Counted from the first letter of the stretch, positions 5,135 through 25,362 are shown. The stretch: DNA of 43,085 nt from a virus (IMGVR_UViG_3300006201_000477); one strand, 5' to 3'. The notes: a model not told the origin generated them from the sequence alone. Numbers and translations are program-made.

Positions 5135-6106
5135 ATGTATAAAATAGAAGAAAAATTGCTTGAAAAATCTAAGGAAGCGTTTTGCCTCGCAATAGAATTA
5201 TATAACAAGCCAACAATAAAATACCGTTTAGAAGGATTCAGCCATTTTATTTGTAACGCTTGGGAATTAATGTTAAAATCATATATGATAAAACTTTGTG
5301 GTGACAGTAGCATATACTATAAAGATAATCCTCAAAGAACTTTATCATTAGAAAATTGTGTACAAAAAGTATTTACCAATAATAAAGATCCTTTACGAAT
5401 TAATCTGGAAAAAATTATTGAATTACGTAATACAAGTACACATTTCATTACGGAAGAATATGAAATGGTATATATTCCTTTGTTCCAAGCATGTGTGTTT
5501 AACTTTAATGAAAAAATGATGGCATTTCACAACATTGACATGACAAATATTATCCCACAAAACTTTTTAACGTTATCTGTTAGTATGAAAGCTCTTGATG
5601 AAGCTGAAATAATAGCTAAATATCCAGAGCCTATTGCCACTCATTTGATCGATCTCAAAAATTCTGTTGATCATTTATCCATTAATAATAATGCAAAATT
5701 TGCAATAAGAATAGACCATTATCATTACATTACTAAAAACAAAGATAAAGCCACCAATATTGTACATTTTGACAAAAATGCCGACTCTGGCATAACGATT
5801 GTAAAGGAACTTCAAGATCCAAATAATACACATAAATATACTGCTAAATCTTGTATTTCTACTATTAAAGAAAGATTACAGAGAAAACATATTGAACTTA
5901 TATACAATGGAAAATCAACCAAATTTACAAGCTTTCACTTTATCAATTTTTGTAAATACTATCATTTAAAAGAAAATGAAAAACTATGTTATATTCATAA
6001 ACAATTTTCAACTCCACAATATTCATATTCACAGCAAATGATTGATTTTATAATAGATGAAATTATAAAAGATCCTGTAAACATACTGGATAACATAAAA
6101 AAATAA
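5135..6106 (+). CDS. DUF3644-like protein (accessory, possible defence-related)
   Basis: The N-terminus LEKSKEAFCLAIELYNKPTIKYRLEGFSHFICNAWELMLKSYMI resembles the DUF3644 signature. Confidence 0.55.
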   Translation: MYKIEEKLLEKSKEAFCLAIELYNKPTIKYRLEGFSHFICNAWELMLKSYMIKLCGDSSIYYKDNPQRTLSLENCVQKVFTNNKDPLRINLEKIIELRNTSTHFITEEYEMVYIPLFQACVFNFNEKMMAFHNIDMTNIIPQNFLTLSVSMKALDEAEIIAKYPEPIATHLIDLKNSVDHLSINNNAKFAIRIDHYHYITKNKDKATNIVHFDKNADSGITIVKELQDPNNTHKYTAKSCISTIKERLQRKHIELIYNGKSTKFTSFHFINFCKYYHLKENEKLCYIHKQFSTPQYSYSQQMIDFIIDEIIKDPVNILDNIKK

Positions 6107-6319: not shown

Positions 6320-7795
6320 ATGAAAAATGGTGCCCTATACATTCGCGTCAGCACTCATATGCAGGATGAGCTTTCCCCTGACGCCCAAAAACGGCTCCTT
6401 CTTGATTACGCCAAAGCAAACCATATTATTGTATCTGAAGATTATATCTTTGAAGAAAAAGGGATTTCTGGGAAAAAAGCTGATAAGAGGCCGCAATTCC
6501 AGCAGATGATTGCTCTTGCCAAAACAAAGCCCACTCCCTTTGATATTATTTTAGTATGGAAATTCTCACGCTTTGCCAGGAACCAAGAAGAATCTATTGT
6601 ATATAAATCTTTGTTAAAGAAACAAGGCGTTGAAGTCCTAAGTGTAAGTGAGCCTGTAGCAGAAGGCCCTTTTGGGAGCTTAATTGAACGTATTATTGAA
6701 TGGATGGATGAATATTACTCTATCCGCCTCTCTGGCGAAGTTATGCGGGGCATGACAGAAAAAGCCCTGCGGGGTGGCTATCAGGCAAGCCCGCCACTTG
6801 GATACCGCATGGACATTCCCAAAAAACCACCTGTTATTGTACCTGAAGAAGCTGCTGCCATCCGTTATATTTTTGATGCCTATGCTAACCAGAACAAAGG
6901 AATCTTTGAGATAGCACGCGCTTTAAATGAAATGGGTTATGAAACGCAACGCCACAAACCATTTGAACGCCGTTCTGTAGAATACATACTTCAAAATCCT
7001 ATGTACTGTGGCTTGCTTAGATGGAATAGACATTGTAATGAGACAAATGAGATTAAAGATGAATCTGAATGGATTATCCGAAAAGGGGAACATCAGGCAA
7101 TTATTTCCGAGAATTTATTTAATAAAGCCCAAGAACGTTATTATACTGAATACAAGCCAAAAGGGGCAAGGCCTTCTAGCACTTATAAACATTGGCTATC
7201 TGGCCTTGTAAAATGCCCTGCCTGTGGCCGTACCATGATTGCTAAAGCAGTAAAATCTTCAGGAAGAATCCTATTCTATTTTACTTGTTATGGATATAGT
7301 AAAGGAAAATGTGCCGCCAAAACTTCAGTTGCTGCTACTAAGTTAGAGCCTGCTGTGCTCTCTTCTATCCAAGAAGCCTTCCAGGCAGAAACCTTTTCCT
7401 ATAGCAATCTTATCTCCCCTAGGCAGCCTGAATCTACTTCTGCAGAACAAAAACGTATTAACGATTTAATCCACAGAGTTACTTTTAAGGAACAGCGTGC
7501 CCGTGACGCATATATCAATGGTATTGATACTATGGAAGAATATAAAAAGAACAAGCTTCGGTTACAGGAAGAACGGCAGCGGCTAGAAGAAAAACTTGCC
7601 CTTCTCTCTCCTATTAAGCCGAATCTTTCCCCTTCAGAAGTAAAGCAGCTAATGCAAAAACGCTTGAAAAGTGTCTATGATGTGCTTCTATCTAATGCTG
7701 ATATTCCCACGAAAAACTCTACGCTCAAAAATGTAGTAGAAAAGATTATCTATAATAAAGAAACAGATACGGTAAAGCTCTATTACTATTCTTAA
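6320..7795 (+). CDS. Large serine recombinase (integrase)
   Basis: Resolvase catalytic N-terminus (ALYIRVSTHMQ). A recombinase domain follows, then a Cys zinc ribbon (CPACGR...CYGYSKGKC) and a C-terminal coiled coil. Confidence 0.95.
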   Translation: MKNGALYIRVSTHMQDELSPDAQKRLLLDYAKANHIIVSEDYIFEEKGISGKKADKRPQFQQMIALAKTKPTPFDIILVWKFSRFARNQEESIVYKSLLKKQGVEVLSVSEPVAEGPFGSLIERIIEWMDEYYSIRLSGEVMRGMTEKALRGGYQASPPLGYRMDIPKKPPVIVPEEAAAIRYIFDAYANQNKGIFEIARALNEMGYETQRHKPFERRSVEYILQNPMYCGLLRWNRHCNETNEIKDESEWIIRKGEHQAIISENLFNKAQERYYTEYKPKGARPSSTYKHWLSGLVKCPACGRTMIAKAVKSSGRILFYFTCYGYSKGKCAAKTSVAATKLEPAVLSSIQEAFQAETFSYSNLISPRQPESTSAEQKRINDLIHRVTFKEQRARDAYINGIDTMEEYKKNKLRLQEERQRLEEKLALLSPIKPNLSPSEVKQLMQKRLKSVYDVLLSNADIPTKNSTLKNVVEKIIYNKETDTVKLYYYS

Positions 7796-7807
7796 TTTTT
7801 TTCTTTA

Positions 7808-7859
7808 AAATTGTATGTTGTTACAATAAGGTTGACCGAATAGTAACAACATACAATTT
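7808..7859. terminator. 17-bp perfect inverted repeat between the convergent integrase and endolysin genes (bidirectional terminator candidate)
   Basis: AAATTGTATGTTGTTAC at 7808..7824 pairs with GTAACAACATACAATTT at 7843..7859. T-rich flanks on both sides. Confidence 0.55.
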
Positions 7860-7872
7860 ATTTCTTACATTA

Positions 7873-8763
7873 CTATATTGCTGCCCCTCTCTCATTTGTC
7901 TGAAGCATATGCCCATCTGCCGCGAACACATATAATTCTATTCCATGTACAGGACTTTCTACCGTTAATAATTCATTACAAGCCATTGCTCCAGATGATT
8001 TTAAGTAATACCTTTTTTCTTCGTCCTTTAGCCAGCCTGTCTGCATAATCCCGTTTGAATCAAAATGATACCACAGCCCATCTACTTCCTGCCAGCAGTT
8101 TTTGCATATCTCCCCATCTGCTTTCTTGTACTTCCAAATGTCCCCTTCCTGTATCCAGCCAGACTTATCCCCATAATCCACATAACATATGTTCCTATCT
8201 ACTCGCCCTGAAATCCCTGGGATACTTCCTGAATCCGTGTGCTGCCAAAGTGCCATATCCTCTCTATTACAAACCTTGTTATAGTACGCATACCATATAG
8301 CATACCCTTCTTCCCTTAACTGTGTCAAGTTAAAATATTGGTTTGCATAATCCTTATTGGTATACACCATTGGTATGTATCCTGCTCCCTTCACTTCTCT
8401 ACAAAAAGCAAGTGTCATATCCATAACCAACTGCCTTGTTACCTTGACACCTTTCCTTTCTGCATAACGAACAGAATCATATTCGAAGTCAAAAGCAATC
8501 GGATAAATAACCCTATATTTTTTTGCCTGGCTAATACAATACTGTGCTTCTCGTCTAGCCATTTCAACCGTATAAGCATAGGAGAACCAGTATAGCCCTA
8601 AAGGGATTCCCTTTTCCATACAGGCAGCAGCATAAGGAACTAGCTTCTCATCTATGTTCCCTGCCCCATATCCAGCACGAAGTATAATGAAGTCTACTGC
8701 TTGTCTTACTTTATCCCAATCTGTTACTTGATTATGGGTACTTAAGTCGATTCCTCTTTTCAC
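7873..8763 (-). CDS. Endolysin: GH25 muramidase with C-terminal cell-wall-binding repeats
   Basis: GH25-like N-terminus (GIDLSTHNQVTDWDKV...FIILRAGYG). The C-terminus has aromatic GW-rich repeats of the CW_binding_1 type. Confidence 0.9.
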   Translation of the reverse strand: MKRGIDLSTHNQVTDWDKVRQAVDFIILRAGYGAGNIDEKLVPYAAACMEKGIPLGLYWFSYAYTVEMARREAQYCISQAKKYRVIYPIAFDFEYDSVRYAERKGVKVTRQLVMDMTLAFCREVKGAGYIPMVYTNKDYANQYFNLTQLREEGYAIWYAYYNKVCNREDMALWQHTDSGSIPGISGRVDRNICYVDYGDKSGWIQEGDIWKYKKADGEICKNCWQEVDGLWYHFDSNGIMQTGWLKDEEKRYYLKSSGAMACNELLTVESPVHGIELYVFAADGHMLQTNERGAAI

Positions 8764-9946: not shown

Positions 9947-10540
9947 TTAACTATACATATCTCTACAAATAATATCCTTTATTTTTGTCACAGAAGAACT
10001 CACATAAATCCCTAATTCTCCTATTTTTCCCTTTAACACTACGTCATCCCCCTCATCACCAAGATAAATCCGTTTACAATTTACTGGCACAGTATCTTCT
10101 ATATACCCATAATAATAGCCATCTATCGAATCATACTCCATATATAACGTATCTGATCTGGTTCCTGTATCATATCGAAACCATGTTTCATCTTCTCCAT
10201 TGGAGCAAACATACATATCTACCGTAAACCCTTCCCCAAATGCTACATAGGTTCCATTTAACATTACCCGTATCTCTGCTCCTGCCAGCGTTTCTGCATT
10301 AGCAGCAGAATTTGAAATTGTCACATGTGCCCTATTATTCCAAACATCTCCACCAGCATAAGCAGGTCCACCACATACCGAATATAAAACTTCAATCGTT
10401 ACTCCCTCTGGCCATATCGTTTCCCATGCCCCATTTTTATAAACCTTCCCTTCTGTAATTTCCCTCCATGCCCCACTAGAATACCGTTTGATACTGCTTA
10501 CATCTTGCCATGCCCCATTGGTATATTTTTTTATACTCAT
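9947..10540 (-). CDS. Hypothetical tail-fibre-associated protein
   Basis: The N-terminus has a repeated Y-x-x-GAW-x-x-I motif. It follows fibre gene 2 after a 9-nt gap. Confidence 0.5.
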   Translation of the reverse strand: MSIKKYTNGAWQDVSSIKRYSSGAWREITEGKVYKNGAWETIWPEGVTIEVLYSVCGGPAYAGGDVWNNRAHVTISNSAANAETLAGAEIRVMLNGTYVAFGEGFTVDMYVCSNGEDETWFRYDTGTRSDTLYMEYDSIDGYYYGYIEDTVPVNCKRIYLGDEGDDVVLKGKIGELGIYVSSSVTKIKDIICRDMYS

Positions 10541-10549
10541 CTTCTCACC

Positions 10550-11029
10550 TCACCAAGCCCAAAGAACAGAACTACTAGAAGGCGTAGAAGATTGGATCGC
10601 CACTCCTTTGACACTCGTTGCCACAGGCACCCCATTGGAAAAATACACTGGCTGCATAGTAGAACCTGCATTGGCATTTAACTTATTGGCAGAACTGGCA
10701 GCTCCCCCTGCTGTAGCAGAACCTGCATAGGTATGGGTATGCCCCGTTTTTGCAAAAGCAGAAGCATGGTATCCATCTACAGTATCTGCATTACATTGAT
10801 CCTCCTCTGCTTTCGCATCCCATTTTCTCTTTTCTTCTTCGGTTACATGAACCTTCCCATCTTTCACATGTTTTTCTGTTTCTTCTACTTTCTTCTTTAA
10901 ATACACATCATTGTTTAGTAATGCCCCTTTTATCCCATTTTCTAGCTCTGCTGTTAAATACTCCTCTTCTTCTACCTGATGGATCTCCTGCTGAAACTCT
11001 GGTGGTTCTTTGATTGCTAAATTTCCCAT
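10550..11029 (-). CDS. Tail fibre protein (paralog 2)
   Basis: The N-terminal ~80 aa are alignable with 13867..14520 (M-x-NL-x-IK-x-P-x-EF...NND-x-YLK-x-K...EEEK-x-KWD). The C-terminus reads GHTHTYAGSATAGGAA. Confidence 0.7.
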   Translation of the reverse strand: MGNLAIKEPPEFQQEIHQVEEEEYLTAELENGIKGALLNNDVYLKKKVEETEKHVKDGKVHVTEEEKRKWDAKAEEDQCNADTVDGYHASAFAKTGHTHTYAGSATAGGAASSANKLNANAGSTMQPVYFSNGVPVATSVKGVAIQSSTPSSSSVLWAW

Positions 11030-11096: not shown

Positions 11097-11223
11097 TTGC
11101 AATCTATTTCTTTTTGTGTTATACTACCTTTATCAAAGGGAACACCACCCACAAAGTGGTTAGCCTCTATATTTTAAGTGAAATAACTGCCTGTCCGGCT
11201 AAGACAAGGGCAGTTATTTTTTT
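11097..11223 (+). ncRNA. Candidate antitoxin sRNA (promoter to terminator), convergent with the holin-like toxin ORF
   Basis: TTGCAA at 11097..11102, a 17-nt spacer, then TGtTATACT with its -10 at 11120..11125. Terminator stem 11181..11191 / 11209..11219 is followed by T8. CACCACCC at 11143..11150 is complementary to the toxin SD GGGUGGUG. Confidence 0.45.
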
Positions 11224-11225
11224 GC

Positions 11226-11312
11226 CTATTTCCTATTCTCTAAACAGGAGATAAGCGCAAGCAAGAATAACCCGAATGTCAACATCAATGATATTGCTTC
11301 GTATGTACTCAT
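11226..11312 (-). CDS. 28-aa hydrophobic holin-like toxin (type I toxin candidate); not in the ORF track
   Basis: Translated by hand: MSTYEAISLMLTFGLFLLALISCLENRK. SD GGGGGGTGGTG lies just upstream. An extended -10 (TGtTATAAT, complement of about 11381..11389) is also upstream. Confidence 0.6.
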   Translation of the reverse strand: MSTYEAISLMLTFGLFLLALISCLENRK

Positions 11313-11418: not shown

Positions 11419-11811
11419 TTATAATACTTTCTTGGCTGCCCCATTTACTCCTACATACATACTACACCTCTTTACCTTCCCATTTACCCCTGCATAGGCT
11501 GCTTGGATTGCCCTGCTTACGCCACTCACTCCTACAAAGGAACCATGGTTGTCATTACAAGCTGTGTTGCAAGTCCCTGTACAGGTTCCTTTACATGTTT
11601 TTTCACATTCTCCCTCACAGGTATCCTCACAACTTCCTTCACAATCCCCTTCACAGCTTCCTTCACAGTCTCCCCCACAACTATCTGTACATTCCGTATA
11701 ACAAGTATTGTCGCAACCATCACAATACCCTACACAACCATCATCACAACCCCCACATCCTGTACACTCCCCACAAATATTTTCACAACTATCCCCACAT
11801 TCCCACGCCAT
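11419..11811 (-). CDS. CXXX-repeat cysteine-rich protein (candidate radical SAM substrate) with a non-Cys C-terminal tail
   Basis: 22 Cys in residues 5..85. Fourteen consecutive Cys sit at exact i+4 spacing (C33..C85). The C-terminus carries two Y-x-GVNG-x-x-K repeats. Confidence 0.8.
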   Translation of the reverse strand: MAWECGDSCENICGECTGCGGCDDGCVGYCDGCDNTCYTECTDSCGGDCEGSCEGDCEGSCEDTCEGECEKTCKGTCTGTCNTACNDNHGSFVGVSGVSRAIQAAYAGVNGKVKRCSMYVGVNGAAKKVL

Positions 11812-11817
11812 TCTTTA

Positions 11818-12135
11818 TCACCCCTGTTCTCTTTCCCGAAACGTTAGGTTCAAATATTTGTTTTTCTCGGAATATGTAGTATAAATAGAGGCCAATGTAG
11901 GAAATCCTTGGTATGTTTTTACTGCCACCCCATTTTGATCTACCACTGTGATTTCTTCCATTCCTATGGTTTTATAATAATGCACTGCCTCATCTCCTGT
12001 GATACTCCCTAATACAGACATATCCACTTGTACCACTAAGGATTTCACCACTTCCTGCCCTACCAAATCAATCCTCTCATCTACACGGTTTACATGCTGA
12101 ATTTCTGTCTTTCCATCTTGTAAAAGAATTTTCAT
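11818..12135 (-). CDS. Hypothetical protein between the maturase and the Cys-rich gene
   Basis: 105-aa ORF that starts directly after the rSAM stop. No motif recognised. Confidence 0.6.
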   Translation of the reverse strand: MKILLQDGKTEIQHVNRVDERIDLVGQEVVKSLVVQVDMSVLGSITGDEAVHYYKTIGMEEITVVDQNGVAVKTYQGFPTLASIYTTYSEKNKYLNLTFREREQG

Positions 12136-13476
12136 CTAGTTTCCTCCCCCTGCTAATTCTTGTAATTTCTCATATTCTTCTTTCCTCACAATTTCTTTTG
12201 CCTTCTCATACGGCAGAAAACAACCCATTCTTTCTGGCACTCCCTTCTTCCTATAATATGTGTTCCAAAAATATACATTCGCTAATGCCCTTGCCTTATG
12301 CATCCCACAAATAAAAGTTGCCCTTTTATCTGGTGTCCCAAACTTTTGATAATTATATGCGGTGCACCAAGCACAACCATCTGCAACAGGACACAAAAAA
12401 CATTCTTCTGTTGATTGGGATTTTCTTGTAATGCCTTTTAAACAAGAAAGACAATCCTTACACTGCTTCGAAGTACCTATTCCTTCCTCTAAACTTCCAA
12501 TTACCATTGGTTCCTGCTCTGTCCCTAGAGAAGTCTCCATAAAGCGGATACAAGGGTATAGGATTCCATCTGGATCACAAGCAAGCATCCTTCCATTCCC
12601 ACCACACCAGTTTTCATTCTCACTTTCTTGTAATGGTCCAAAACTATTCTCTAAGAAAAGGGAACAATAGGTGCTTTCTACTAAATCCTTTTCGATATAA
12701 TACTTGGCAAGTTTTTTCAACTGCTGGTAAAAGATAGCTGGGTGGACTTGGTTATCCCATACATCTTCAAACACACAGTTCGCATGAATATCCCGAAACC
12801 CTATTTTATGTAAATGGATCATGGATTCATATAAGAATCGAATATTTTCCGGTGAAATGGTAACTTTTGTCCCTGTATTCCCATACTTCCTTAAACTATG
12901 CTTTACCGCTTTTTCTACAAGATCATACGAATGGCTTCCATCTGGAAACCGCCGGCAAGCATCATGCAGCTCTTTATTTCCATCAATCGTAATATTTAAC
13001 GAAGTCCAGTTCCCATACTCTTTCAAGAACTCCTGAAATCGTTTATCAAAATATAAGATCCCATTGGTACAAATCGAAAACCGATGGAACTCTAACCACG
13101 GGTGATGGAAAAGGATCATTCTTTCTGTTACATAATCACAGATTCTTCGGATTAACTCGATCTCCAACAAAGGTTCCCCTCCAATAAACTCGATCACAAT
13201 TCCCCCTGTGTTATCTTGACTGATATACTGGTCCCCTCTTGCTGATAAAAGCTGATCCACAAACTGCTTTGCTGTCTCAAAGGACATGGATTTCTTTTTC
13301 TTATGGGTCTGGTAACAATAACTACACTTCAAATTACAATCATCTGTTACCTTAAAGGTAACGGTCCTTACTGCCCTCCATGTCCCTTCTGCTACCTGCC
13401 CCTTCTTTTCCTCTAAATCAGGAAATAGCTTTGCAATATAATCTGGATAATGAATTGGTCTGTACCTTTTTATCAT
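12136..13476 (-). CDS. Radical SAM / SPASM-domain peptide maturase (anSME-like)
   Basis: CX3CX2C at C47/C51/C54 (CNLKCSYC, nt 13315..13338). C-terminal SPASM-type Cys clusters: CGGNGRMLACDPDGILYPC and CKDCLSC...CFLCPVADGCAWC. Confidence 0.9.
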   Translation of the reverse strand: MIKRYRPIHYPDYIAKLFPDLEEKKGQVAEGTWRAVRTVTFKVTDDCNLKCSYCYQTHKKKKSMSFETAKQFVDQLLSARGDQYISQDNTGGIVIEFIGGEPLLEIELIRRICDYVTERMILFHHPWLEFHRFSICTNGILYFDKRFQEFLKEYGNWTSLNITIDGNKELHDACRRFPDGSHSYDLVEKAVKHSLRKYGNTGTKVTISPENIRFLYESMIHLHKIGFRDIHANCVFEDVWDNQVHPAIFYQQLKKLAKYYIEKDLVESTYCSLFLENSFGPLQESENENWCGGNGRMLACDPDGILYPCIRFMETSLGTEQEPMVIGSLEEGIGTSKQCKDCLSCLKGITRKSQSTEECFLCPVADGCAWCTAYNYQKFGTPDKRATFICGMHKARALANVYFWNTYYRKKGVPERMGCFLPYEKAKEIVRKEEYEKLQELAGGGN

Positions 13477-13814
13477 ACAGTTCCTCCCTCTTCTACAGGT
13501 ATTGCCTTTGGTATATCCAGAAATATCACACAGATACTACAGGTACTATATTCCAATGTCCACTGGAACTTCCTGCCTACATACTCCTGAAGGATACAGG
13601 TATTCACATATTCCACCATTTGTTGGAATTCCCGATAAGAATCATCATATAACTCCTGATAATAGGAAAGGATTTCTTTGTTATAAACCCCATTCGTATC
13701 TTTTAAAATACTTCGTAGAATCTCTTTCCTTCCCCGATATAAATAAGTAGTACGTTCTATCTTGGCAGCCAGTTCTTCTGTAATGGTTATGGTTACTTTC
13801 TTTTCTTGTGCCAT
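13473..13814 (-). CDS. Small accessory protein translationally coupled to the radical SAM gene
   Basis: ATG at 13814 has an upstream AGGA. The track start at 13835 is GTG. Its stop overlaps the rSAM start (ATGA). Confidence 0.6.
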   Translation of the reverse strand: MAQEKKVTITITEELAAKIERTTYLYRGRKEILRSILKDTNGVYNKEILSYYQELYDDSYREFQQMVEYVNTCILQEYVGRKFQWTLEYSTCSICVIFLDIPKAIPVEEGGTV

Positions 13815-13866
13815 GTCTTTTTCCTTTCTTTTCACTATGAATCTTTTTCCTTCCTAAAAAATCCTC

Positions 13867-14520
13867 TTAAGAATATAATAAATACACTTCCCCATTATTT
13901 AAAGAACCAGGGACAGACGTACCAAACTTCACATTCCTCAACTTGGAAGTGGCGTAATCTGTCCCTGGTTTTACTGAAACATTCTCTGGAAAAGTACCTG
14001 CTGTAATGGTGCTTGCACTTTGTGTATGCGCTGATGGGGGCATAGAGGAAGGTAAGGTAACATCCATTCTTACTTTTTTTGTCGCATTATCCCCATTTAT
14101 GGATACATTGTCCCCTGCTACAATCTCCACCTGGGCAGTCTTACTATTTGCCTCTACCAGCACATTCCCAACTTTCACCTTACTAAAAGCGTTCTGGTTT
14201 ACTTCTGCCCCTGCTGCCACATGGTCCAATTTCTGCTTATCCTCAGGAGACATCAATCCTGCTTTTGCTTGGGTTGCTTCCTGTGTGGCAGTAGTATCCC
14301 ACTTCTTTTTCTCCTCTTCTGATACATGTATCCCTGTATCTGTCGTATGCTGATTCGAATTAAGAACCATTTCTTCCAGCTTTTGCTTCAGGTATATATC
14401 ATTATTTAAAAGCTGCCCTTTGATCTGGTTCTCGATATTGTCTGTAATCAAATCGGACTGTTTTACTTGGTACACTTCTGTTGTAAACTCTGCTGGGCTT
14501 TTGATTGGTAAATTTGCCAT
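13867..14520 (-). CDS. Tail fibre protein (paralog 1)
   Basis: Its N-terminus is paralogous to 10550..11029. It follows the tail-collar-like gene. Confidence 0.7.
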   Translation of the reverse strand: MANLPIKSPAEFTTEVYQVKQSDLITDNIENQIKGQLLNNDIYLKQKLEEMVLNSNQHTTDTGIHVSEEEKKKWDTTATQEATQAKAGLMSPEDKQKLDHVAAGAEVNQNAFSKVKVGNVLVEANSKTAQVEIVAGDNVSINGDNATKKVRMDVTLPSSMPPSAHTQSASTITAGTFPENVSVKPGTDYATSKLRNVKFGTSVPGSLNNGEVYLLYS

Positions 14521-14537: not shown

Positions 14538-14918
14538 TTAAAAAATCTCCTGAATGGAAAAGTCAAAGAGCATATCATCATCTTTCCCTTTCTTAAGGAA
14601 CGTCCGATACATCACCAAATCCCCCTCTTCATCAAATAGCCCTACTTCGGAGATATATTTCTGGGCTAGTTCGGTTTTTCCTAAGCTGGACTTATATTCG
14701 CATGTGGTAGGGATTGGGTACCCATGGGAATCCACTTCCCTTCTTAACAACTCATTACGAAGAGATACTTCTTCCCCTGTTACTGGTAAGGGAGTGCCTG
14801 CCTCATCTACCCCTCCCTCTCCATAGGCTATATACTTAATTTTAGGCAGTACCATATCCCCTGCATGAGACTTGCACATCTTTTCCCTGCCTTTTTGTGT
14901 GATTACTGCATTTGCCAT
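14538..14918 (-). CDS. Tail fibre N-terminal / tail-collar-like protein
   Basis: 126 aa. The pattern ITQKGREK...IKYIAYGEGG...RNEL...VGLFDEEGDL resembles the phage tail-collar fibre domain. Confidence 0.55.
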   Translation of the reverse strand: MANAVITQKGREKMCKSHAGDMVLPKIKYIAYGEGGVDEAGTPLPVTGEEVSLRNELLRREVDSHGYPIPTTCEYKSSLGKTELAQKYISEVGLFDEEGDLVMYRTFLKKGKDDDMLFDFSIQEIF

Positions 14919-14941: not shown

Positions 14942-15862
14942 TTACAAAACTTCATGGATTATTTTACTATCATATTTCCTTGTCCCATTGTATTGGTATT
15001 TGCCATTATACTGTGTTAGGTGTTTCCCAACGGTTAAAGAAACTTGATAAGTTGGAACACTCCCTTTATGAGTCGTTTTTATTTTTAACCGATTTCCTAT
15101 TCCAACTTTAGGATTTGTTTCTGATAGATAAAATATCTTTGTTTCTTTATTTTTAATTTGTTGCTTTGCTTTATCATGTAACCCTATTTTAGGAATGTGA
15201 TCATATACAAACAAACGTGGGATAGAATAAGAAAGCTTCGTAGGATATAAGTCCACAAAGGAATCTGTTTTATAGCCATTATACTTATATTTATTATAGG
15301 GTGCTGTCCCATCATACATAAGATAGGGTAAATTATAACGGGGATAGAAATCATGGATAAAATTTAGTTTACTTTCTGATTTGATTTCTTCACTGACTTT
15401 TATTACCTCTCTCCTAGCATAAATAAATACTAAATTTAATGGGATCATCTCTTCTAACATGGTACGGATAACCTGTGCTTCTTTCAAGGTCCTCCCACTA
15501 ATAGCGACCTTTAACCAGTATATATCTGGATTACATATAACTTGATATTCTTCGCCTTCCAGCATAGATTGAATCCGTTCATGCAACATACGCATTGTGA
15601 AAGGCAAACGCTCATTTAGCTTTTCCTTAATACGGCAATTCCTGATTTCTAAGGAATCTGTCCTTTTAGGTTGCAATTCTAAAATTTTTTCCCACCTAGA
15701 AGCACCATACCCACTATGTAACTCTAAAAAACCTTCTTTTATGGTATTCTGGGTATCCTTCCAAAGTTGTTCTACCACATCTTGCTCTGCATCCATCAAA
15801 TGTTTTATTTCTTTTAGGTCCCCTATTACAGGAGGCAAATAATTAAGTAATTTCCTGTCCAA
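14942..15862 (-). CDS. XkdU/DUF2313-like baseplate-associated tail protein
   Basis: N-terminus LLNYLPPVIGDLKEIKHLMDAEQ. It lies directly downstream of baseplate J. Confidence 0.6.
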   Translation of the reverse strand: MDRKLLNYLPPVIGDLKEIKHLMDAEQDVVEQLWKDTQNTIKEGFLELHSGYGASRWEKILELQPKRTDSLEIRNCRIKEKLNERLPFTMRMLHERIQSMLEGEEYQVICNPDIYWLKVAISGRTLKEAQVIRTMLEEMIPLNLVFIYARREVIKVSEEIKSESKLNFIHDFYPRYNLPYLMYDGTAPYNKYKYNGYKTDSFVDLYPTKLSYSIPRLFVYDHIPKIGLHDKAKQQIKNKETKIFYLSETNPKVGIGNRLKIKTTHKGSVPTYQVSLTVGKHLTQYNGKYQYNGTRKYDSKIIHEVL

Positions 15863-16931
15863 TTATCTGCCCCCTTTCTACAATACAGTCAGTATCTAAA
15901 AATAGATTCTCTTCTGCCCCATTTATTCTGGTATCCCTAATATCTACAACTCCTTTTACGGTTAGAAAATCAGATTCAATCCTAGAAATCCTTACGACTA
16001 AATTACTTTTACTTGCCCAAGTTTGATTTAATTCTTTTACATAATTATTTAATACCTCTTCTAGGTATGGCTCTACATCTTCAAATACATACCCTTGTTC
16101 AAAAAGTAAGTTTGTATGAATATGAATCGTCACTGGAATCGCAGAACAAACATGTGCCTGATGCCCAATCGGTGCCAAACCATACCCTTCTCCAGCACAT
16201 TCCTCTGGGTCTATTTTTTCCTGTACCTGAAATACTAACTCTTCACTAGCTGCTGTATATTCTGAAGAAATAATTACACATTTTACATGCCCGCCTACCC
16301 GTTCATCTGCTTTATTTGTGGTACGGTAAACTTTACAGCCTCCAACTCCCTGTATCGCAGTAATCTTTTCTATATAATCTGCCCTGTTTCCTCCAAATGC
16401 TTTTGGAGAAAACGATTGTATATAACGTTCCCGAAATGCTTCTGTTTCTTCCTCATCTTCCCCAGGAATTAAAAGTTCTGTCAATTCTGCATAAGAAAGC
16501 CCCTGAATATAGCCAATTGGAATTAATGTTCCAAACTTCCGATTCCCTATACTTCCAGCTGCTTCACATTGTAACTGGTAGGTATGGTCCATATGATCTA
16601 ATTCTTCTAGTACTACATAATTCCATTCCTCTAAGCTAAACCGTGCACCAATAGGCACTTCTTTGTTAAATTTCCCTTTTAAAATAGCATGGCTTGCTTT
16701 TTTAGGGGAAAGCCCCCTTTCTGCCGCCCGCCGGATTAAATATTCTCTATTTGCCGTATCTGCAAAATATTGATCCAACATCCAGTCCAGTTCAATATAA
16801 AGCTGTGCCATCTCTGCAGCAGCAGGGGCTAGTGCATCCCATATAACAGAACCTTCTCGTTTATCTATGTTCATGGGTACCCTTTTCAGCAAATCCGCCA
16901 TAATGGTTTCATATGTTTTCTTTTCATACAT
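15843..16931 (-). CDS. Baseplate J-like protein (XkdT-like)
   Basis: The ATG at 16931 overlaps the upstream stop (TAATG). The region YETIMADLLKRVPMNIDKREGSVIWDALAPAAAEMAQLY is typical of baseplate J. Confidence 0.85.
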   Translation of the reverse strand: MYEKKTYETIMADLLKRVPMNIDKREGSVIWDALAPAAAEMAQLYIELDWMLDQYFADTANREYLIRRAAERGLSPKKASHAILKGKFNKEVPIGARFSLEEWNYVVLEELDHMDHTYQLQCEAAGSIGNRKFGTLIPIGYIQGLSYAELTELLIPGEDEEETEAFRERYIQSFSPKAFGGNRADYIEKITAIQGVGGCKVYRTTNKADERVGGHVKCVIISSEYTAASEELVFQVQEKIDPEECAGEGYGLAPIGHQAHVCSAIPVTIHIHTNLLFEQGYVFEDVEPYLEEVLNNYVKELNQTWASKSNLVVRISRIESDFLTVKGVVDIRDTRINGAEENLFLDTDCIVERGQIIGQEIT

Positions 16932-17335
16932 TAAAAATTCACCACCTTTTCTAATTCTATTGCCCCAAAGATAGTATGTACCATAAAAGAAACACAAACT
17001 TCGCCTTTGTTAGGGGAATCAAATTTAAAATTATCGACATGTTTAATACGATGATCCCATGTTAATGCTTCTGTAATCCTCCGTTCTAATTCAGGATATA
17101 CATAAGAAACGGCTTCCCCATACAAATCTGCTAATTCAATCCCATAGTTCCAGGAATATATTACATATTGATAGCGTTCAGTAGAAAGAATTTTATAAAT
17201 CGCTTGGATCATGGCTTCCTTTCCATCTATACCACCATCAACCTGATTACTTTGTAAATTTATTTTATAAGTATTGGTTGGTTGATTTACAATTTTTAAA
17301 TTTTGCTTTGGAAAAGCACTAATCGAGGGAATCAT
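16931..17335 (-). CDS. XkdS/DUF2634-like baseplate wedge protein
   Basis: Size, synteny and the motif GKEAMIQAIYKILSTERYQYVIYSWNYG. Confidence 0.6.
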   Translation of the reverse strand: MIPSISAFPKQNLKIVNQPTNTYKINLQSNQVDGGIDGKEAMIQAIYKILSTERYQYVIYSWNYGIELADLYGEAVSYVYPELERRITEALTWDHRIKHVDNFKFDSPNKGEVCVSFMVHTIFGAIELEKVVNF

Positions 17336-18704: not shown

Positions 18705-19388
18705 CTAAACAACTGGTATTACAAGAACTTGTCCTGGATATATGACATTAGGGCTTCCCTTTATTACCTCTTGGTTCGCATGATAAATCTCTGTATACTT
18801 GGAGCCATCACCGTAAAACTTTTTTGCAATATTCCAAAGACAATCGCCTTCTACCACTGTATATTGTTGTTGTTCTGTTGGTTCAGGGCTTGTTTCTGCT
18901 GAACGGGTTTCTTGTATAACTGCTTCCAATCCAGAATCCTGTATATCCACTATTTTTGTCTGGTATGCTTGGTATTGCTTTAATTTTATTTTTATGGTTA
19001 AATCAAACCCATTGTTGGCATCTTCTGTAATTCCATAGTCCTCCATGGAAACTTTTATATTGGTGTTAAACAGAAGTTTACCACTTGGCAAAACCCTTGA
19101 AACAATAAATTGAAAAGGAGCTTGATCCGTTTTTAATTTTTTAAAATAATCTAAAAAATATGCTGCCTCTTGGAATCCCGAACGATAAACCGCATATGGA
19201 TACCTCACTTGTGGTATCTCACATTCAAATTCAATCTCTGTCAGCCCTGCTTTTTTTAATAAATTTACTTCTCCCTCATTAATTAAAGTAATTGTTTTAT
19301 TTGCATTTTTTATCTTCATCTGCAATTTCTTTGGGGCAACTGGCAATAAACATTTTTTTAAATAAAAATCATACCCACTCCTTGCCAT
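18705..19388 (-). CDS. XkdP-like LysM-domain tail protein
   Basis: C-terminal LysM domain: YTVVEGDCLWNIAKKFYGDGSKYTEIYHANQ...PGQVLVIP. Confidence 0.75.
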   Translation of the reverse strand: MARSGYDFYLKKCLLPVAPKKLQMKIKNANKTITLINEGEVNLLKKAGLTEIEFECEIPQVRYPYAVYRSGFQEAAYFLDYFKKLKTDQAPFQFIVSRVLPSGKLLFNTNIKVSMEDYGITEDANNGFDLTIKIKLKQYQAYQTKIVDIQDSGLEAVIQETRSAETSPEPTEQQQYTVVEGDCLWNIAKKFYGDGSKYTEIYHANQEVIKGSPNVIYPGQVLVIPVV

Positions 19389-22093
19389 TACTCATGTACT
19401 CCTTCTGCTACCATGTCAACTGCTTCTATCATCGCATCTGTCAATCCTGAAACTACGCCATCTAAATCCGTGCCATTCTTAATATTATTCCGCATCCCAG
19501 ACTGATCAATATGGATTTCAGCAGTTGTAAAACGGTTGATTGTCTCCTGTTCTGCAATATCCCGTAAATATTTTAGTTCCTCGCTGGTTATGTCCATGGA
19601 ATTTGCCATTTTTCCTGTATTCGTTGCAATACTATTAATCCCTTCCCCTAAAGGACCATTGATATAATCCTCTTCAGAAGGAATATTCGATGGACCAAAA
19701 AGAGAGGTTAGATCAAAATTAGCAATTTTCTCATCAATTCCTTCCCCGAAAGAATTCCCAGCATCCCAGACATCTTTATAATCCATTCTATAGTTTATTG
19801 TTGGTGCAGAGCGATTTAGTGTAATAGCATCTTCATTTTTCCCCCAGCCTAAAACAGAACTTTGAAGCTCACTTAAACCAGATGTCCAGTCAGTCCCAAA
19901 TATAGCATCAATAATCTTAGTCACTACCATCCCAAGTGATAAAAACCATGAAATAATTTGCCCTATTAGATTTGCAACTGCTCCTCCAAAGCTGTCAAAA
20001 CCTCCATTCGCTACGTTTAATATCCATTCTACAATACCTATAAAGGGGCTTGCAAAAGACCAAACACCTTGAAGAATCGCATTAATTAACCCTATCGCCG
20101 TATTGAGTATAAACGCTCCTGCAACTGCTATTACCCCACATATGATTCCTGTTGCAGATACAGAAGCCCCAGCAAGCTTATTAAATGCTGCTACCACAGC
20201 ATAAATAATAGCAATTAATGCAATAATCAAAATAATAATCCATGTAATAGGGCAGGCAAGCAAAGCAGCATTAAAACCATACTGTGCCGCCGTTGCTGTG
20301 AAAGTTGCTCCTGCTCCCATAGCAAGAGAAGCAGCATGAATTTTTTCCGCAACTGTTTTTGCTGCTGTGACTGCTGCTGAAATTCCGGTAACTGTATTAT
20401 ACAAAAGCATTGCCCCATAATATACCATCAATGCCCCTGCCACTCCATAAATAATAGGCGATAACCACGACCAATTGTTAATCAAAATATCTGCACCAGC
20501 CCCAAGCAAATCAAAAAGCTGCATGGTTATACCAGCAGCTGCTGACAACGCCCCTATCATACCATTCACAAACTCCTGAAACCTTTCACTATTGGCAATA
20601 TCATTGCATCGTTGTAAGACAGGCTGAAATGCCATAAGGGCATGATTTTCAAAAGAGGTCCAAATCTGTTCAAAAGTTTTTGGCATATTTTCAAATTTTT
20701 CATTCGTTTCATCAGCCGCCGCAAACATAGCTGCCTTGACAATATCAGCAGTAATTTCCCCTTCCCCTGCCATTTCCCTTAATTTTCCTTTTGAAACACC
20801 TAAATAATCTGCAATTGTCTGAATGATGTTTGGGGCTTGTTCTAAAATACTATTATATTCCTCACCACGAAGAACCCCAGACCCCATGGCCTGCGTCAGT
20901 TGCAACATAGCAGCATCTATCCCTGATGCCTCTGTCCCAGCAATAATAAACTGTTTATTGACCTGTTCCATAAAGCCAATAATTTCTTCTGAACTGCCAA
21001 ACGCATCTCCTGCCATAAGCCCAAGCTTCGAAACAGCATTTGCTGTTGCTTGATAACTCCCCCTTGATCTTTCTGCTGAAAGAAAAATCATATCCTGTAA
21101 CTCTTTTGTTGACTGCAACCCATCATTCATCATATCTAGGCGGGCCGTTGTCGATGTCATTTGATCAGATATGTTTAACACATTTTTTACAGTCTGCAAG
21201 GAACCATATGTTACAGCTACCCCTTTCAACATTTGCATTAGTTTATTGGATTCCTCTTTTCCTTGCTGAATCTCCTGGTTAAACTGTCCCTGTGCATCCA
21301 CATTATCCCGGATATAACGTTCTGTACCACCAATCACCTGCTGTAAACGTAAATATGCCTCATTTGCAGACTGGACATCTAAGTTTTCTACAGCCCGGTT
21401 TAATTCCCTTTGTGTTTGGATCGCCTGGCTTAACTGTCCACGTAGTTGTTCCAATCCTACATTAGCAGTATCCGTTCCCATATTTAATGGATTACTTTCT
21501 ATTTGTTGGATACGATTCCTAATCATGTCGATCCGTACAGCCATATTGTTTAAATCCTGAAATGCCCCTGGTGGAAAAATAGTAGTATTATATGCTTGCC
21601 TTGCAATTACATCTTGTGTATTGCTCAATTGCTCCAACATGGTATTAGCACTCTGGACTTCTTGTTGAAACCGTTCTACACCAGAATTTGTAAATACTTC
21701 CAGTCTATCAGATTGCCAATGCACTAGAATTTCCACAGGTTCTGGTTGTTCTGGTTGAATAGGTACATCAACAGGCGGAGGCTGCTCTACAAAAGGCTCT
21801 GGCACATCTGTCTGTACTGGAAGCACCACTGGGGCCGAACTTTGTGGAATGGTAGGTATTTGTACTTCAGGCGCTTCCATCTCCTGTATAGCTGCATCTA
21901 ACTGTTGCACTGCAATAGTAGCCTGATTAACAGAATCCCTTGCCGCTTCCATAGAAGCTGTGTCAACAGAAGCGTTCATACCCTGACGCAAATCTTCCAT
22001 AGCAGAAAGCCCCAAATTTACGGAACTGATAACCTGATATAAAATACTTGTAAAGTTATCTTGCAATTCAATTGCTGTTCTAACGCTGGCCAT
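19388..22093 (-). CDS. Tail tape measure protein
   Basis: 901 aa with a coiled-coil N-terminus and a Gly/Ala-rich hydrophobic central region. It lies after the chaperone genes. Confidence 0.9.
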   Translation of the reverse strand: MASVRTAIELQDNFTSILYQVISSVNLGLSAMEDLRQGMNASVDTASMEAARDSVNQATIAVQQLDAAIQEMEAPEVQIPTIPQSSAPVVLPVQTDVPEPFVEQPPPVDVPIQPEQPEPVEILVHWQSDRLEVFTNSGVERFQQEVQSANTMLEQLSNTQDVIARQAYNTTIFPPGAFQDLNNMAVRIDMIRNRIQQIESNPLNMGTDTANVGLEQLRGQLSQAIQTQRELNRAVENLDVQSANEAYLRLQQVIGGTERYIRDNVDAQGQFNQEIQQGKEESNKLMQMLKGVAVTYGSLQTVKNVLNISDQMTSTTARLDMMNDGLQSTKELQDMIFLSAERSRGSYQATANAVSKLGLMAGDAFGSSEEIIGFMEQVNKQFIIAGTEASGIDAAMLQLTQAMGSGVLRGEEYNSILEQAPNIIQTIADYLGVSKGKLREMAGEGEITADIVKAAMFAAADETNEKFENMPKTFEQIWTSFENHALMAFQPVLQRCNDIANSERFQEFVNGMIGALSAAAGITMQLFDLLGAGADILINNWSWLSPIIYGVAGALMVYYGAMLLYNTVTGISAAVTAAKTVAEKIHAASLAMGAGATFTATAAQYGFNAALLACPITWIIILIIALIAIIYAVVAAFNKLAGASVSATGIICGVIAVAGAFILNTAIGLINAILQGVWSFASPFIGIVEWILNVANGGFDSFGGAVANLIGQIISWFLSLGMVVTKIIDAIFGTDWTSGLSELQSSVLGWGKNEDAITLNRSAPTINYRMDYKDVWDAGNSFGEGIDEKIANFDLTSLFGPSNIPSEEDYINGPLGEGINSIATNTGKMANSMDITSEELKYLRDIAEQETINRFTTAEIHIDQSGMRNNIKNGTDLDGVVSGLTDAMIEAVDMVAEGVHE

Positions 22094-23552: not shown

Positions 23553-24035
23553 CTAATTAGTAAGAAATCCTTCTAAGTCCTTAAATACTTCTGGCATTTT
23601 AAAATCTTCAAAGGTAAAATCCATTTCTTCATCTAGGTATTCCCCATCTGCATCAAATTTTGCTAATATCCCACCATCTATATTACAATCCATTAAGATC
23701 ATAGTCTGGCGCCCCACTGCTGCCGTTTTATCTTCATTCGAAATCTGGATTTCAAAATAAATATCTTCCCCAGTTTCCTTATACTGCATCATCATCTGCC
23801 GGAAAATAGATGTGTTATAGTGGAAGGTTGCACTTCCTGTCCCCTTCCAGCCACATGCCTTATTCCCCTTCCCTGTTTTCCCTAAAATAGGAACCTCTGT
23901 TTTATTTTTTTCAAACTTTGCTTCCAAGTTAATGGCCTGCATAAAATTATATCTGCGTGTCCCTATGGTAATAAAACATTCCGCTAACGATGCAAATACC
24001 GTATCTTTTGCTTTCATTACTACATTCCCATTCAT
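23553..24035 (-). CDS. Tail tube protein (XkdM-like)
   Basis: ATG at 24035 has an upstream GGTGAAGGA. It lies directly after the sheath gene. Confidence 0.8.
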   Translation of the reverse strand: MNGNVVMKAKDTVFASLAECFITIGTRRYNFMQAINLEAKFEKNKTEVPILGKTGKGNKACGWKGTGSATFHYNTSIFRQMMMQYKETGEDIYFEIQISNEDKTAAVGRQTMILMDCNIDGGILAKFDADGEYLDEEMDFTFEDFKMPEVFKDLEGFLTN

Positions 24036-24051
24036 TTCCTTCACCCTTTCC

Positions 24052-25362
24052 TTATGCGATAGTACAAACCATATATAATTTAGACATAGCATTTACCACT
24101 GTTATAAAATCAGTTACTAATACTGACTTTTTTGTATTTCCTTGTTCCACCTTTACATCAGTATCTACGAAATTTTCAATAGCCCGTATCTCTTGAAGCT
24201 GTTCATGGTGCTTTACAATATCAGACCAAAGAGAAACCCTGCCAGCGGCATCATTAGGGACTACTCCTAAATACTTTGTATTAAATAATACTGCAATATC
24301 ATTTCCAATCTGGTCTATTACCCGAATGGTCTGGTTATCCTTAAAAATTTCCCCTTGTGTATCAGAAGTTGTCACCATCGTATTTATATCTTCTAATACC
24401 CGTATATCAGACCCCACCATATGGAAGGTAAATTGCCCAGATTTAATAGCAGCTTTTAACTGGTTTTGTGTATATGGCGTATCAACCATAAAATCACCAT
24501 TATATTTTTTATTCTGGTTACTTTTATTTACCGCACAACCAGCCGAAATACCTGTTACCCAATATACAAGGCTTGCCTCACTCCATTCCTTATCCAACAC
24601 TTTATTATTTACGCTAATCACGCCTAAATAATCTGCCTTAGCATAGTCATAAAGGACAAGTTGGAATTTAACCCCCATCTCATCACGCAGCCGTTTTACA
24701 AAAGAAGCAAACAATGATTTTGTTGTATTATCTGTCACTACCACTCCCATAGTATTAAAGCTATAAGATTCAATTTTATCCAGATATTCTTGATAAGCGG
24801 CACCATCTACTTCCCCATTCTCACCACCAGTGAATGGCATACCTACGGTTGCTTCCAAGGTAATTCCAGACTTCCATTTAATATATTTATTCTCTACTAA
24901 TCCTTCTGCACTAGAAACCGTTTGCTCATCTACTATGTTTGTCCCCAACAACGTTTTTACATCAAACATTGTTTCATTATCTGTATTTACTTGAATAATA
25001 ATCTTTAAGTCATTCCCGCGGATACCCGGATACTTTGCTTCTGCCAGGCTATTGCTTGCTTTTGCCCCCTTGCCATTTAAACGGTATCCATAGAATTTCT
25101 GTGTATGTAAAAATAAGTCTCGAAGCCCTTTCATCTTATCACTTGTATAGTCATACCCAAAAATTTCCATGCTGTTTTTCTGGAAATCACTATTTGTTAC
25201 TTCAAAGACCTCACCTATAACACCCCAATCTAATTCTAGGGGCATAGTTGCAATTCCCCTTTCAGAAAGTGTTGCATTTGCCGATGCCGCCGAAACAAAG
25301 TTAATATATGCCCCTGGCAACTCTTTGTTTTGAACTAAATATGTGCCACCACCTAATGCCAT
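24052..25362 (-). CDS. Contractile tail sheath protein (XkdK-like)
   Basis: 436 aa. The N-terminus GGGTYLVQNKELPGAYINFVS is typical of phage sheath proteins. Confidence 0.9.
   Translation of the reverse strand: MALGGGTYLVQNKELPGAYINFVSAASANATLSERGIATMPLELDWGVIGEVFEVTNSDFQKNSMEIFGYDYTSDKMKGLRDLFLHTQKFYGYRLNGKGAKASNSLAEAKYPGIRGNDLKIIIQVNTDNETMFDVKTLLGTNIVDEQTVSSAEGLVENKYIKWKSGITLEATVGMPFTGGENGEVDGAAYQEYLDKIESYSFNTMGVVVTDNTTKSLFASFVKRLRDEMGVKFQLVLYDYAKADYLGVISVNNKVLDKEWSEASLVYWVTGISAGCAVNKSNQNKKYNGDFMVDTPYTQNQLKAAIKSGQFTFHMVGSDIRVLEDINTMVTTSDTQGEIFKDNQTIRVIDQIGNDIAVLFNTKYLGVVPNDAAGRVSLWSDIVKHHEQLQEIRAIENFVDTDVKVEQGNTKKSVLVTDFITVVNAMSKLYMVCTIA

Follow-up and report, generated by a model that had tools for sequence, protein, structure and literature searches.

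A CXXX-repeat radical SAM cassette of a phage type behind a tail-fibre gene, with a candidate stapled virion protein as its product

Introduction

What would a peptide-maturation enzyme do among the tail genes of a virus? The question is raised by the viral contig IMGVR_UViG_3300006201_000477, a stretch of 43,085 nucleotides (hereafter the window), in which a radical S-adenosylmethionine (SAM) enzyme with a SPASM domain and a very Cys-rich protein are encoded in a compact group of genes behind a tail-fibre gene. The original prediction for this locus, made from the sequence alone, was that of a maturase with a CXXX-repeat target, acting on a part of the host-recognition apparatus rather than on a secreted ribosomally synthesised and post-translationally modified peptide (RiPP). 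Systems of this kind are known from cells, where they have been defined bioinformatically as a target (TIGR04114/04117), a radical SAM enzyme (TIGR04115), a SPASM-only maturase (TIGR04119) and an accessory protein (TIGR04116).

On balance, we lean to the view that the cassette is a phage-type version of this protein-modification system, with a stapled product that associates with the virion. The type of system is already catalogued in NCBIfam, and the Prokaryotic Genome Annotation Pipeline would give the enzyme its correct name. In its architecture, the phage type is a distinct and widespread variant, which has no TIGR04119 protein, carries its helper gene upstream, encodes long substrates without export signals and lies in tail modules. 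The chemistry of the family had been described as uncharacterised, and our literature search agrees, since it found no experimental or descriptive paper on TIGR04115 or its phage form; one paper that names TIGR04115 merely tabulates domain hits.

Results and discussion

The cassette and its enzyme

The listing of open reading frames (ORFs) and the junctions read from the sequence give four co-oriented genes on the minus strand, from 13835 down to 11419, just as had been predicted. In the order of transcription they encode a helper protein (13473..13835), the radical SAM/SPASM maturase (12136..13476, 446 amino acids), a small protein (11818..12135, 105 amino acids) and the Cys-rich target (11419..11811, 130 amino acids). 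The helper has 120 amino acids when read from a GTG and 113 from the ATG at 13814, and both start candidates are preceded by a purine-rich ribosome-binding site, as are the starts of all four genes. It had been put at about 114 amino acids with a stop overlapping the next start; the overlap is as described (ATGA), and the length rests on the ATG at 13814 as the start. The TAG stop of the maturase gene abuts the ATG of the small gene, and 6 nucleotides separate the stop of the latter from the start of the target gene, which begins 325 nucleotides downstream of the maturase gene. The genes of the cassette are translationally coupled, and scans for promoters and terminators inside it gave no excess over shuffled sequences. 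Upstream, the helper gene starts 31 nucleotides past the stop of a 217-residue protein gene (13867..14520, minus strand) whose product matches tail-fibre families of the PHROG database (phrog_7389 and phrog_3100, 'tail fiber protein'), and the cassette thus lies directly downstream of a tail-fibre gene, as first claimed.

By the cutoff that NCBI sets, the enzyme falls within the family of radical SAM peptide maturases with CXXX-repeat targets: it scores 480.9 bits against TIGR04115 (cutoff 350, E = 3e-144), with a match that covers model positions 2-359 of 359. The motifs on which the prediction of a 446-residue radical SAM/SPASM enzyme was based are indeed present. The CX3CX2C motif (CNLKCSYC) spans residues 47-54, with C47, C51 and C54, and the SPASM cysteines follow the pattern C291-X12-G-X4-C309, C359-X2-C362-X5-C368-X2-C371 and C390. 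These 3 + 7 cysteines, and no others, are 100% conserved among 122 non-identical homologues. Relatives are numerous, with 3558 homologues of the enzyme found at E <= 1e-40. They include metagenome-assembled genomes or isolates of Clostridia and Lachnospiraceae type, for example GCA_965314605.1, and a homologue with 53% identity is encoded by Anaerolentibacter hominis.

The next-best families all remain below their cutoffs: the PapB family NF047865 (189.7 bits, cutoff 340), QhpD (118.2 bits, cutoff 453), the nif11-like peptide maturases (111.9 bits), for which no chemistry is stated, and the SCIFF (six cysteines in forty-five residues) maturase TIGR03974 (110 bits, cutoff 425). The best sequence match in the PDB is CteB (5WGG, E = 2e-25). 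Its alignment opens at CteB residue 95 and window residue 35, which indicates that the window enzyme has no fused N-terminal RiPP recognition element (RRE).

For comparison, 80 loci from IMG/VR and 80 loci from GTDB genomes were fetched, and the comparison covers 163 loci with a full radical SAM ORF, the window included (they are cited below by their L numbers where a locus has to be named). They bear on whether the enzyme could be an anaerobic sulfatase-maturating enzyme (anSME), or another radical SAM enzyme that does not act on peptides, next to a Cys-rich ORF that is a chance low-complexity frame. SPASM domains are common to anSMEs, the window enzyme does match the anSME model TIGR03942 weakly, at 59.6 bits, and gene callers skip the Cys-rich ORF in some contigs. 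However, the anSME cutoff is 349.45 bits (and 484 for NF010308, which gave 42.9), while that of TIGR04115 is passed; under the stricter filter, 142 of the 163 loci have a co-oriented CXXX ORF adjoining the radical SAM gene, after a first pass that yielded 212 candidate ORFs; and the Cys register and frame survive whole-codon insertions and deletions in diverged relatives. An anSME identity, which had been named at the outset as a finding that would speak against the prediction, is rejected on these scores, and we regard this whole explanation as hardly credible.

Some phage-type enzymes appear to carry an intein within the CX3CX2C motif. In L061, L062, L082 and L083 the radical SAM ORF has 783-799 codons, with an insertion after the third Cys in L061, L082 and L083 ('CSYC|LSGDT...') and at the second Cys in L062 ('CNLAC|FVAGTKIL'); inteins are suggested here by ORF length and by the sequence that follows the motif. 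In the one such homologue that was scanned with Pfam, P0051 (774 amino acids), intein and LAGLIDADG domains were found.

The Cys-rich target

The target matches TIGR04114 at 22.3 bits against a cutoff of 20, a slim margin that is expected for a repeat model of 18 positions. Its Cys-repeat region (residues 1-86, 11554..11811, minus strand) contains 22 cysteines, which is 25.9% of residues 1-85 and reproduces the 26 percent given in the prediction. Among the 21 Cys-Cys spacings, 17 are of four residues and 4 of three, corresponding to CXXX and CXX repeats. The repeats begin at residue 5, no hydrophobic or twin-arginine segment is present, and the region is therefore leaderless. It is also very acidic: Asp and Glu make up 30% of the non-Cys residues, the highest value among 170 targets surveyed. 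The C-terminal tail (residues 87-130 plus the stop, 11419..11553, minus strand) contains three short '[FY]xG[VI]xGxx[KR]' units.

In relatives whose radical SAM enzymes are 63-70% identical to that of the window, the Cys columns and the frame are kept through codon-multiple insertions and deletions, and repeat units are gained or lost. The prediction had named a target absent or frameshifted in close relatives as evidence against itself; the target was found intact in all the diverged relatives examined. Across four members of this lineage the tail of about 45 residues is nearly invariant, whereas the Cys region varies by insertions and deletions. Because of this near-invariance, we regard the tail as the strongest candidate for a docking element, which may bind the virion or else the enzyme and helper.

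Short triple repeats recur around the cassette and may be a shared attachment motif. Besides the target tail, they occur in a 197-residue protein of the window (9947..10540, minus strand), whose N-terminus is formed by three 'K[KR]Y..GAW..[VI]' units, and in L029, where the protein encoded after the radical SAM gene (7427..8695) begins with 'YIGVNNVAHKIKKAYIG' and has an N-terminal motif similar to the target tail.

The target genes themselves are easily overlooked. In L168 and L169 the target ORF (about 7660..8040) is intact yet uncalled, and the exact target of the window is absent from a collection of 15 billion proteins in which its radical SAM enzyme is found on 5 contigs and its 105-residue neighbour on 25. 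Gene finders thus tend to under-call Cys-rich target genes systematically, which leaves this biology largely invisible in current annotations.

The helper and the small protein

The first gene had been tentatively assigned to the family of associated modification-system proteins. The curated model TIGR04116 (cutoff 50 bits) gives no match to the helper even at E <= 10, whereas a true member of the family (L002, 4945-5220) scores 104.6 bits. A jackhmmer search started from the helper converges on 154 ORFs in 151 loci, among them true TIGR04116 members with more than 100 bits, and a profile search with the helper returns the group of the window together with proteins named 'CXXX repeat peptide modification system protein'. 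Moreover, phage-only and cell-only helper profiles that were built independently align to each other (hhalign 97.0%, E = 9e-11, 84 of 91 columns). On the strength of this alignment between profiles the helper is a remote homologue of TIGR04116: the assignment is upheld at the level of homology and fails at the level of the curated model.

An AlphaFold2 model of the helper, computed from an alignment of 50 sequences, has a mean predicted local distance difference test score (pLDDT) of 84.8 and a predicted template-modelling score of 0.71. The predicted fold comprises one strand, a long two-helix hairpin and a β-hairpin. Foldseek found no significant fold match for this model in the PDB (best E = 0.25), and a search of PDB sequences with the helper profile returned coiled-coil noise only. 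We therefore reject the possibility that the helper is a PqqD-type RRE, as the confident model has no significant fold neighbour in the PDB.

The 105-residue protein was described as unknown, and no match to it was found in Pfam, NCBIfam or PHROG. An exhaustive search of 1.84 billion representatives returned 9 hits, of which 7 are full-length at 95-105 amino acids. The gene follows that of the radical SAM enzyme in L165, L167 and L168; it is a tiny family that, as judged from these hits, travels with the cassette lineage of the window. L165 has two copies, one before the helper gene (5372..5734) and one after the radical SAM gene (7386..7673), which shows the mobility of this small protein within the cassette. 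Small proteins that begin with 'MK[IL]x[LF]xDG...' occur at other phage-type cassettes, and the 105-residue protein aligns with them weakly to moderately (hhalign 89.5% and 73.3%); jackhmmer found no link between it and its small counterparts at other phage-type loci. It is possibly a fourth, fast-evolving component of the system.

Cellular and phage types

The 163 loci fall into two types, 65 cellular and 98 phage-type, the latter including the window. The cellular loci come from Bacteroidota and some Clostridia, and the phage-type loci from IMG/VR viral contigs and a few genome prophages. In IMG/VR at least 226 contigs encode relatives, as confirmed among the first 600 pattern matches. Both types share the radical SAM family, with the equivalog cutoff passed by the window enzyme, a target with Cys at every fourth position and a homologous accessory protein, which occurs in 151 of the 165 sequence sets when that of the window is counted.

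The differences concern each component. The second maturase TIGR04119, searched by phmmer with a true family member (235 bits), is found in the 65 cellular loci, in none of the 98 phage-type loci and not in the window. The helper gene lies downstream in the cellular type; in the phage type, where present and with three exceptions, it lies directly upstream of the radical SAM gene and overlaps its start. The radical SAM enzymes have a median length of 408 amino acids in the cellular type against 443 in the phage type, which has N- and C-terminal extensions, and 71 of 74 phage-type enzymes fall into one cluster by the unweighted pair group method with arithmetic mean, about 38% identical to the cellular enzymes.

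The targets differ most in size and in the signals that they carry. Their median length is 104 amino acids in cellular loci and 245 in phage-type loci (maximum 827), about 2.4 times as long, and the median number of cysteines rises about threefold, from 13 to 36 (maximum 126). Cellular targets have an N-terminal leader of about 40 residues, which resembles a signal for twin-arginine translocation (Tat) in 52 of 85. Among phage targets this holds for 1 of 85, which comes from a truncated cellular locus, and no Sec signal was found. In place of a Tat-type leader, phage targets have either a conserved N-terminal domain of about 100 residues (67 loci) or, as in the window, no leader and a conserved C-terminal tail. 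Cellular loci have one to five targets, with none detected in 4 loci; phage-type loci have one or two, with none passing the filter in 17.

A survey of related prophages had been proposed with the original prediction. L165, L167 and L168, with radical SAM enzymes 63-70% identical to that of the window, retain the whole order of baseplate, fibre, helper, radical SAM enzyme, small protein and target, including the lysis genes.

Several features of the cellular loci deserve mention. In the Bacteroidota the targets (L002 and about 50 further loci, e.g. L105, L107 and L110) share a conserved twin-arginine leader, 'SRREFFKKAAKxALPxLG', and in L002 tatA and tatC lie directly downstream of the cluster. 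Up to five target paralogues stand in tandem in L117 and L121. In 14 Clostridia-type loci the TIGR04115 and TIGR04119 proteins are fused into one polypeptide of 706-735 amino acids (L095, L096, L099, L101, L112, L114, L118, L123, L138, L146, L149, L156, L159 and L160).

A nucleotide search with the cassette against the 50,697 phage records of INPHARED gave no match, and a protein search of the same collection above 35% identity returned two uncultured faecal contigs only. One of these two, MT837480, is actually a Bacteroidota-type cellular locus. Jumbo phages (SPN3US and Erwinia phages) encode radical SAM enzymes that are 23-27% identical to the window enzyme and have no Cys-rich neighbour, for which reason they were rejected as instances of the same system. 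In Salmonella phage SPN3US (L170, 137066..144316) a pair of radical SAM genes (23% identity) lies beside a gene for a DUF4376 protein; it looks like a different phage radical SAM system, also unstudied.

Virion part or cargo

Is the modified protein a part of the virus particle? Homologues of the baseplate and fibre genes of the window lie within 6 kb of the cassette in 33 of the 98 phage-type loci and in 0 of the 65 cellular loci. Where the tail is of another type, the target gene is immediately preceded by one that matches tail-fibre or virion-structural PHROGs, and among the 25 PHROG families most often matched by upstream neighbours, 12 of the 13 with a named function are virion or tail-fibre families. 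In three loci the target itself is fused to domains of a fibre-like kind: the proteins of L014 (2785..5214), L031 (2714..5197) and L032 (2748..5198), of 809-827 amino acids, combine a leaderless CXXX array of 230 residues with two ALK/LTK-type glycine-rich domains (PF12810, 331 bits). Furthermore, the hallmarks of a secreted RiPP that were looked for in and beside the cassette (leader, leader peptidase, exporter and RRE) were not found. This comparative evidence supports the earlier preference for a component of the host-recognition apparatus over a secreted RiPP, through the missing export signals, the fibre neighbours and the fibre-like fusions, with the location in the virion itself being the inferred part. 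The phage-type system seems to modify a protein of the virus particle and not a secreted peptide, and we are somewhat inclined to accept the virion association of the target.

In L014, L031 and L032 a '...VYVKQNNVWIKS'-type motif forms the C-terminal end of the fused proteins, a second protein with glycine-rich domains is encoded just upstream, and endolysin and holin genes follow the cassette.

The position of the cassette can be read in another way. The junction between fibre and lysis genes is a classic site of non-structural cargo ('moron') genes, and the cassette could be such cargo, with a modified Cys-rich protein that works outside the virion, for example as a bacteriocin-like or signalling product released at lysis, or as an effector in the lysogen or inside the cell. 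The cellular homologues do look exported, given the Tat-like leaders and the adjacent tatA and tatC genes described above. Directly past the cassette, in the gap of 389 nucleotides behind the target gene, there is a 28-residue ORF (11226..11312, minus strand; MSTYEAISLMLTFGLFLLALISCLENRK) that matches the Pfam family Hol_Tox (PF16935) with 44.5 bits against a cutoff of 23.3, and it is followed by a terminator-like hairpin with an 11-bp stem (11181..11219). This ORF is likely a small holin-like toxin gene and probably a neighbour outside the modification system. A second tail-fibre gene, for a protein of 159 amino acids (10550..11029, minus strand; phrog_12754 and phrog_26019), lies downstream, and since the N-terminal parts of the 217- and 159-residue proteins are paralogous (phmmer, E = 3.8e-20), the cassette sits between two fibre paralogues, just ahead of the lysis genes; such duplicated N-termini could mark an insertion.

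Against cargo stand the phage targets themselves, which have no leader, signal peptide, protease or transporter, and which are long and fused to fibre-like domains. The cassette is translationally coupled to a late fibre gene with no excess of promoter-like sequence, and its arrangement has been kept across several tail types, in no fewer than 98 loci. We consider cargo unlikely, and hold to the reading of a virion part.

Thioethers or metal ligands

The question of what the enzyme makes of the cysteines is approached through its characterised relatives. Three of the four next-best families, PapB, QhpD and the SCIFF maturase ScfB (CteB type), form thioether crosslinks at Cys. QhpD is a radical SAM/SPASM enzyme that staples a protein subunit with Cys-Asp/Glu thioethers. 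It resembles the proposed phage system in acting on a protein subunit, that is QhpC, the gamma subunit of quinohemoprotein amine dehydrogenase, and not on a secreted peptide; it differs in its substrate, a small enzyme subunit that receives three crosslinks and has no repeat array, and in its non-viral context. CteB and ScfB, which link Cys to the C-gamma of Thr in SCIFF peptides, are the best match among solved structures and have the same seven-Cys SPASM architecture, but the RRE of about 90 residues at the N-terminus of CteB is absent from the window enzyme, and SCIFF is a peptide of 45 amino acids with six Cys. In CteB (5WGG) an auxiliary cluster has an open site for the Cys of the substrate. 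As only seven SPASM cysteines are invariant in the family of the window enzyme, a site could likewise be left for a substrate Cys.

The closest characterised family is that of PapB, which matures PapA (freyrasin, a ranthipeptide of Paenibacillus polymyxa) by introducing six Cys-to-Asp/Glu thioethers in repeated CXXXD motifs with the help of two auxiliary clusters (PMC12373016). The window target is likewise rich in Asp and Glu next to Cys, and acceptors of the PapB kind are available in this lineage. The differences are nevertheless substantial: PapB reads the leader through an RRE of its own, whereas the window enzyme has none and is accompanied by a separate helper that is not an RRE; the phage substrates are proteins of 130-830 amino acids and not short secreted peptides; and family-wide the residue at i+4 is Cys, not Asp. 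The residues between the cysteines are Gly, Ser, Thr, Asn or Ala in 65-78% of positions, and the median content of Asp and Glu is 5-6%. The original argument from Glu and Asp as acceptors thus applies to the window lineage, where a carboxylate acceptor is plausible, and does not extend to a general rule. Taken together, the analogy with these enzymes tips us slightly towards repeated thioether formation.

The same inter-Cys residues, among which Gly, Ser and Thr prevail and no conserved acceptor stands out, and the extreme density of Cys, with up to 126 in one protein, would also suit an array that coordinates metals or Fe-S clusters much as a metallothionein or polyferredoxin does. The radical SAM enzyme would then act otherwise or help to load or shape the array, and the protein could still be structural. 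Metal-stabilised phage fibres such as T4 gp37 are known, and Tat export, as indicated by the leaders of the cellular homologues, is characteristic of proteins whose folding or cofactor binding takes place in the cytoplasm. However, a thioether-stapled protein would need Tat too, so that the Tat argument does not discriminate. PapB, QhpD and CteB/ScfB all crosslink Cys covalently, and enzyme, helper and target co-occur strictly (helper in 151 of 165 sets), as they do in peptide-maturation systems. A metal array is in our judgement improbable, and the covalent product is retained as the preferred reading.

A working model of the stapled product would run as follows. The cassette would be expressed alongside the late tail genes and give a leaderless protein of 130 amino acids with Cys at every fourth, sometimes third, position of residues 1-86. 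The helper, with its novel non-RRE fold, could dock the substrate or keep it unfolded for the enzyme; this role is proposed in view of the lack of a recognition domain in the enzyme itself. Reductive cleavage of SAM at the CX3CX2C cluster would generate a 5'-deoxyadenosyl radical that takes a hydrogen from a carbon near each Cys, and the thiolate of that Cys, held at the open site of auxiliary cluster I, would close the thioether, with a loss of 2 Da per link, repeatedly along the array. The product would be a reduction-proof, protease-resistant and multiply stapled module, joined to the distal tail in the fibre region by its conserved C-terminal tail. All sources in the survey are anaerobic habitats. 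As disulfides would be unreliable in strict anaerobes, reduction-resistant crosslinks made in the cytoplasm may serve as their substitute.

Several points weigh against this model. The chemistry is argued solely from related enzymes, and since acidic acceptors of the PapB and QhpD type are rare family-wide, a general acceptor, if there is any, must belong to the set of Gly, Ser, Thr and Cys. For the helper, the PDB offers no structural analogue that would confirm a role as chaperone or in recognition, AlphaFold2 run on the target without an alignment gave an unusable model (pLDDT 35), and a motif scan and tblastn detected few relatives of the tail motif. The cassette occupies the usual slot for cargo between fibre and lysis genes, with the Hol-Tox gene adjoining, and not all phage-type loci could be tied to tail genes by homologues within 6 kb. 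Finally, no cultured phage in INPHARED has the cassette, and there is thus no virion proteome to draw on.

Hardened structures are not foreign to phages, as the isopeptide 'chainmail' of the HK97 capsid and the iron-binding fibre tip of T4 gp37 illustrate. In both, as in the present proposal, covalent or metal crosslinks harden a structural part of the phage; the means differ, as those are autocatalytic or based on simple metal binding, whereas a dedicated radical SAM enzyme is proposed here. We know of no precedent for links installed by a radical SAM enzyme in a virion protein. The broader proposal, to which we give less than even credence and which we put forward tentatively, is that a large, phage-specific branch of the family builds a ladder of thioether, or other Cys-derived, crosslinks in virion proteins associated with the tail fibres, at up to about 100 sites and with a non-RRE helper. 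This would be the first radical SAM modification of a structural protein of a virus.

If the model is true, phages of gut anaerobes use crosslinks installed by an enzyme to harden a portion of the apparatus with which they recognise their hosts. Modification of tens of sites in each protein, aided by a helper of novel fold, would bear on RRE-free substrate recognition and on enzymatic protein stapling. The cassette is also a tractable entry to the chemistry of TIGR04115, a family catalogued for years, as it offers three or four small genes, a leaderless substrate of 130 amino acids rich in acidic residues, and no second maturase.

Genomic setting

The window is from a temperate, PBSX-like myovirus of gut type. 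Its structural genes include those of the sheath (24052..25362), the tube (23553..24092) and the tape measure protein (19388..22093). Between these and the cassette, the upstream region encodes a LysM protein, YqbQ, a DUF2577 protein and a sheath initiator, followed by baseplate J (15843..16997), a tail protein (14942..15862) and a tail-collar-fibre-like protein (14538..14918), next to the 217-residue fibre protein already described.

On the other side, two unknown proteins are encoded after the 159-residue fibre paralogue, and then a protein that we read as XhlA-like, for which Pfam gives a sub-threshold YscO match only. A GH25/choline-binding endolysin follows (7873..8763). The window also contains a gene for a Rha regulator and, on the plus strand, one for a serine recombinase (6320..7795). 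Beside the latter, at the end of the prophage, a restriction-endonuclease-like gene (5135..6106, plus strand) has matches to DUF3644 and EC042_2821 (201.7 and 108.5 bits) and is accompanied by genes for an SH3 protein and a DUF4352 protein; this group is possibly a defence or cargo module.

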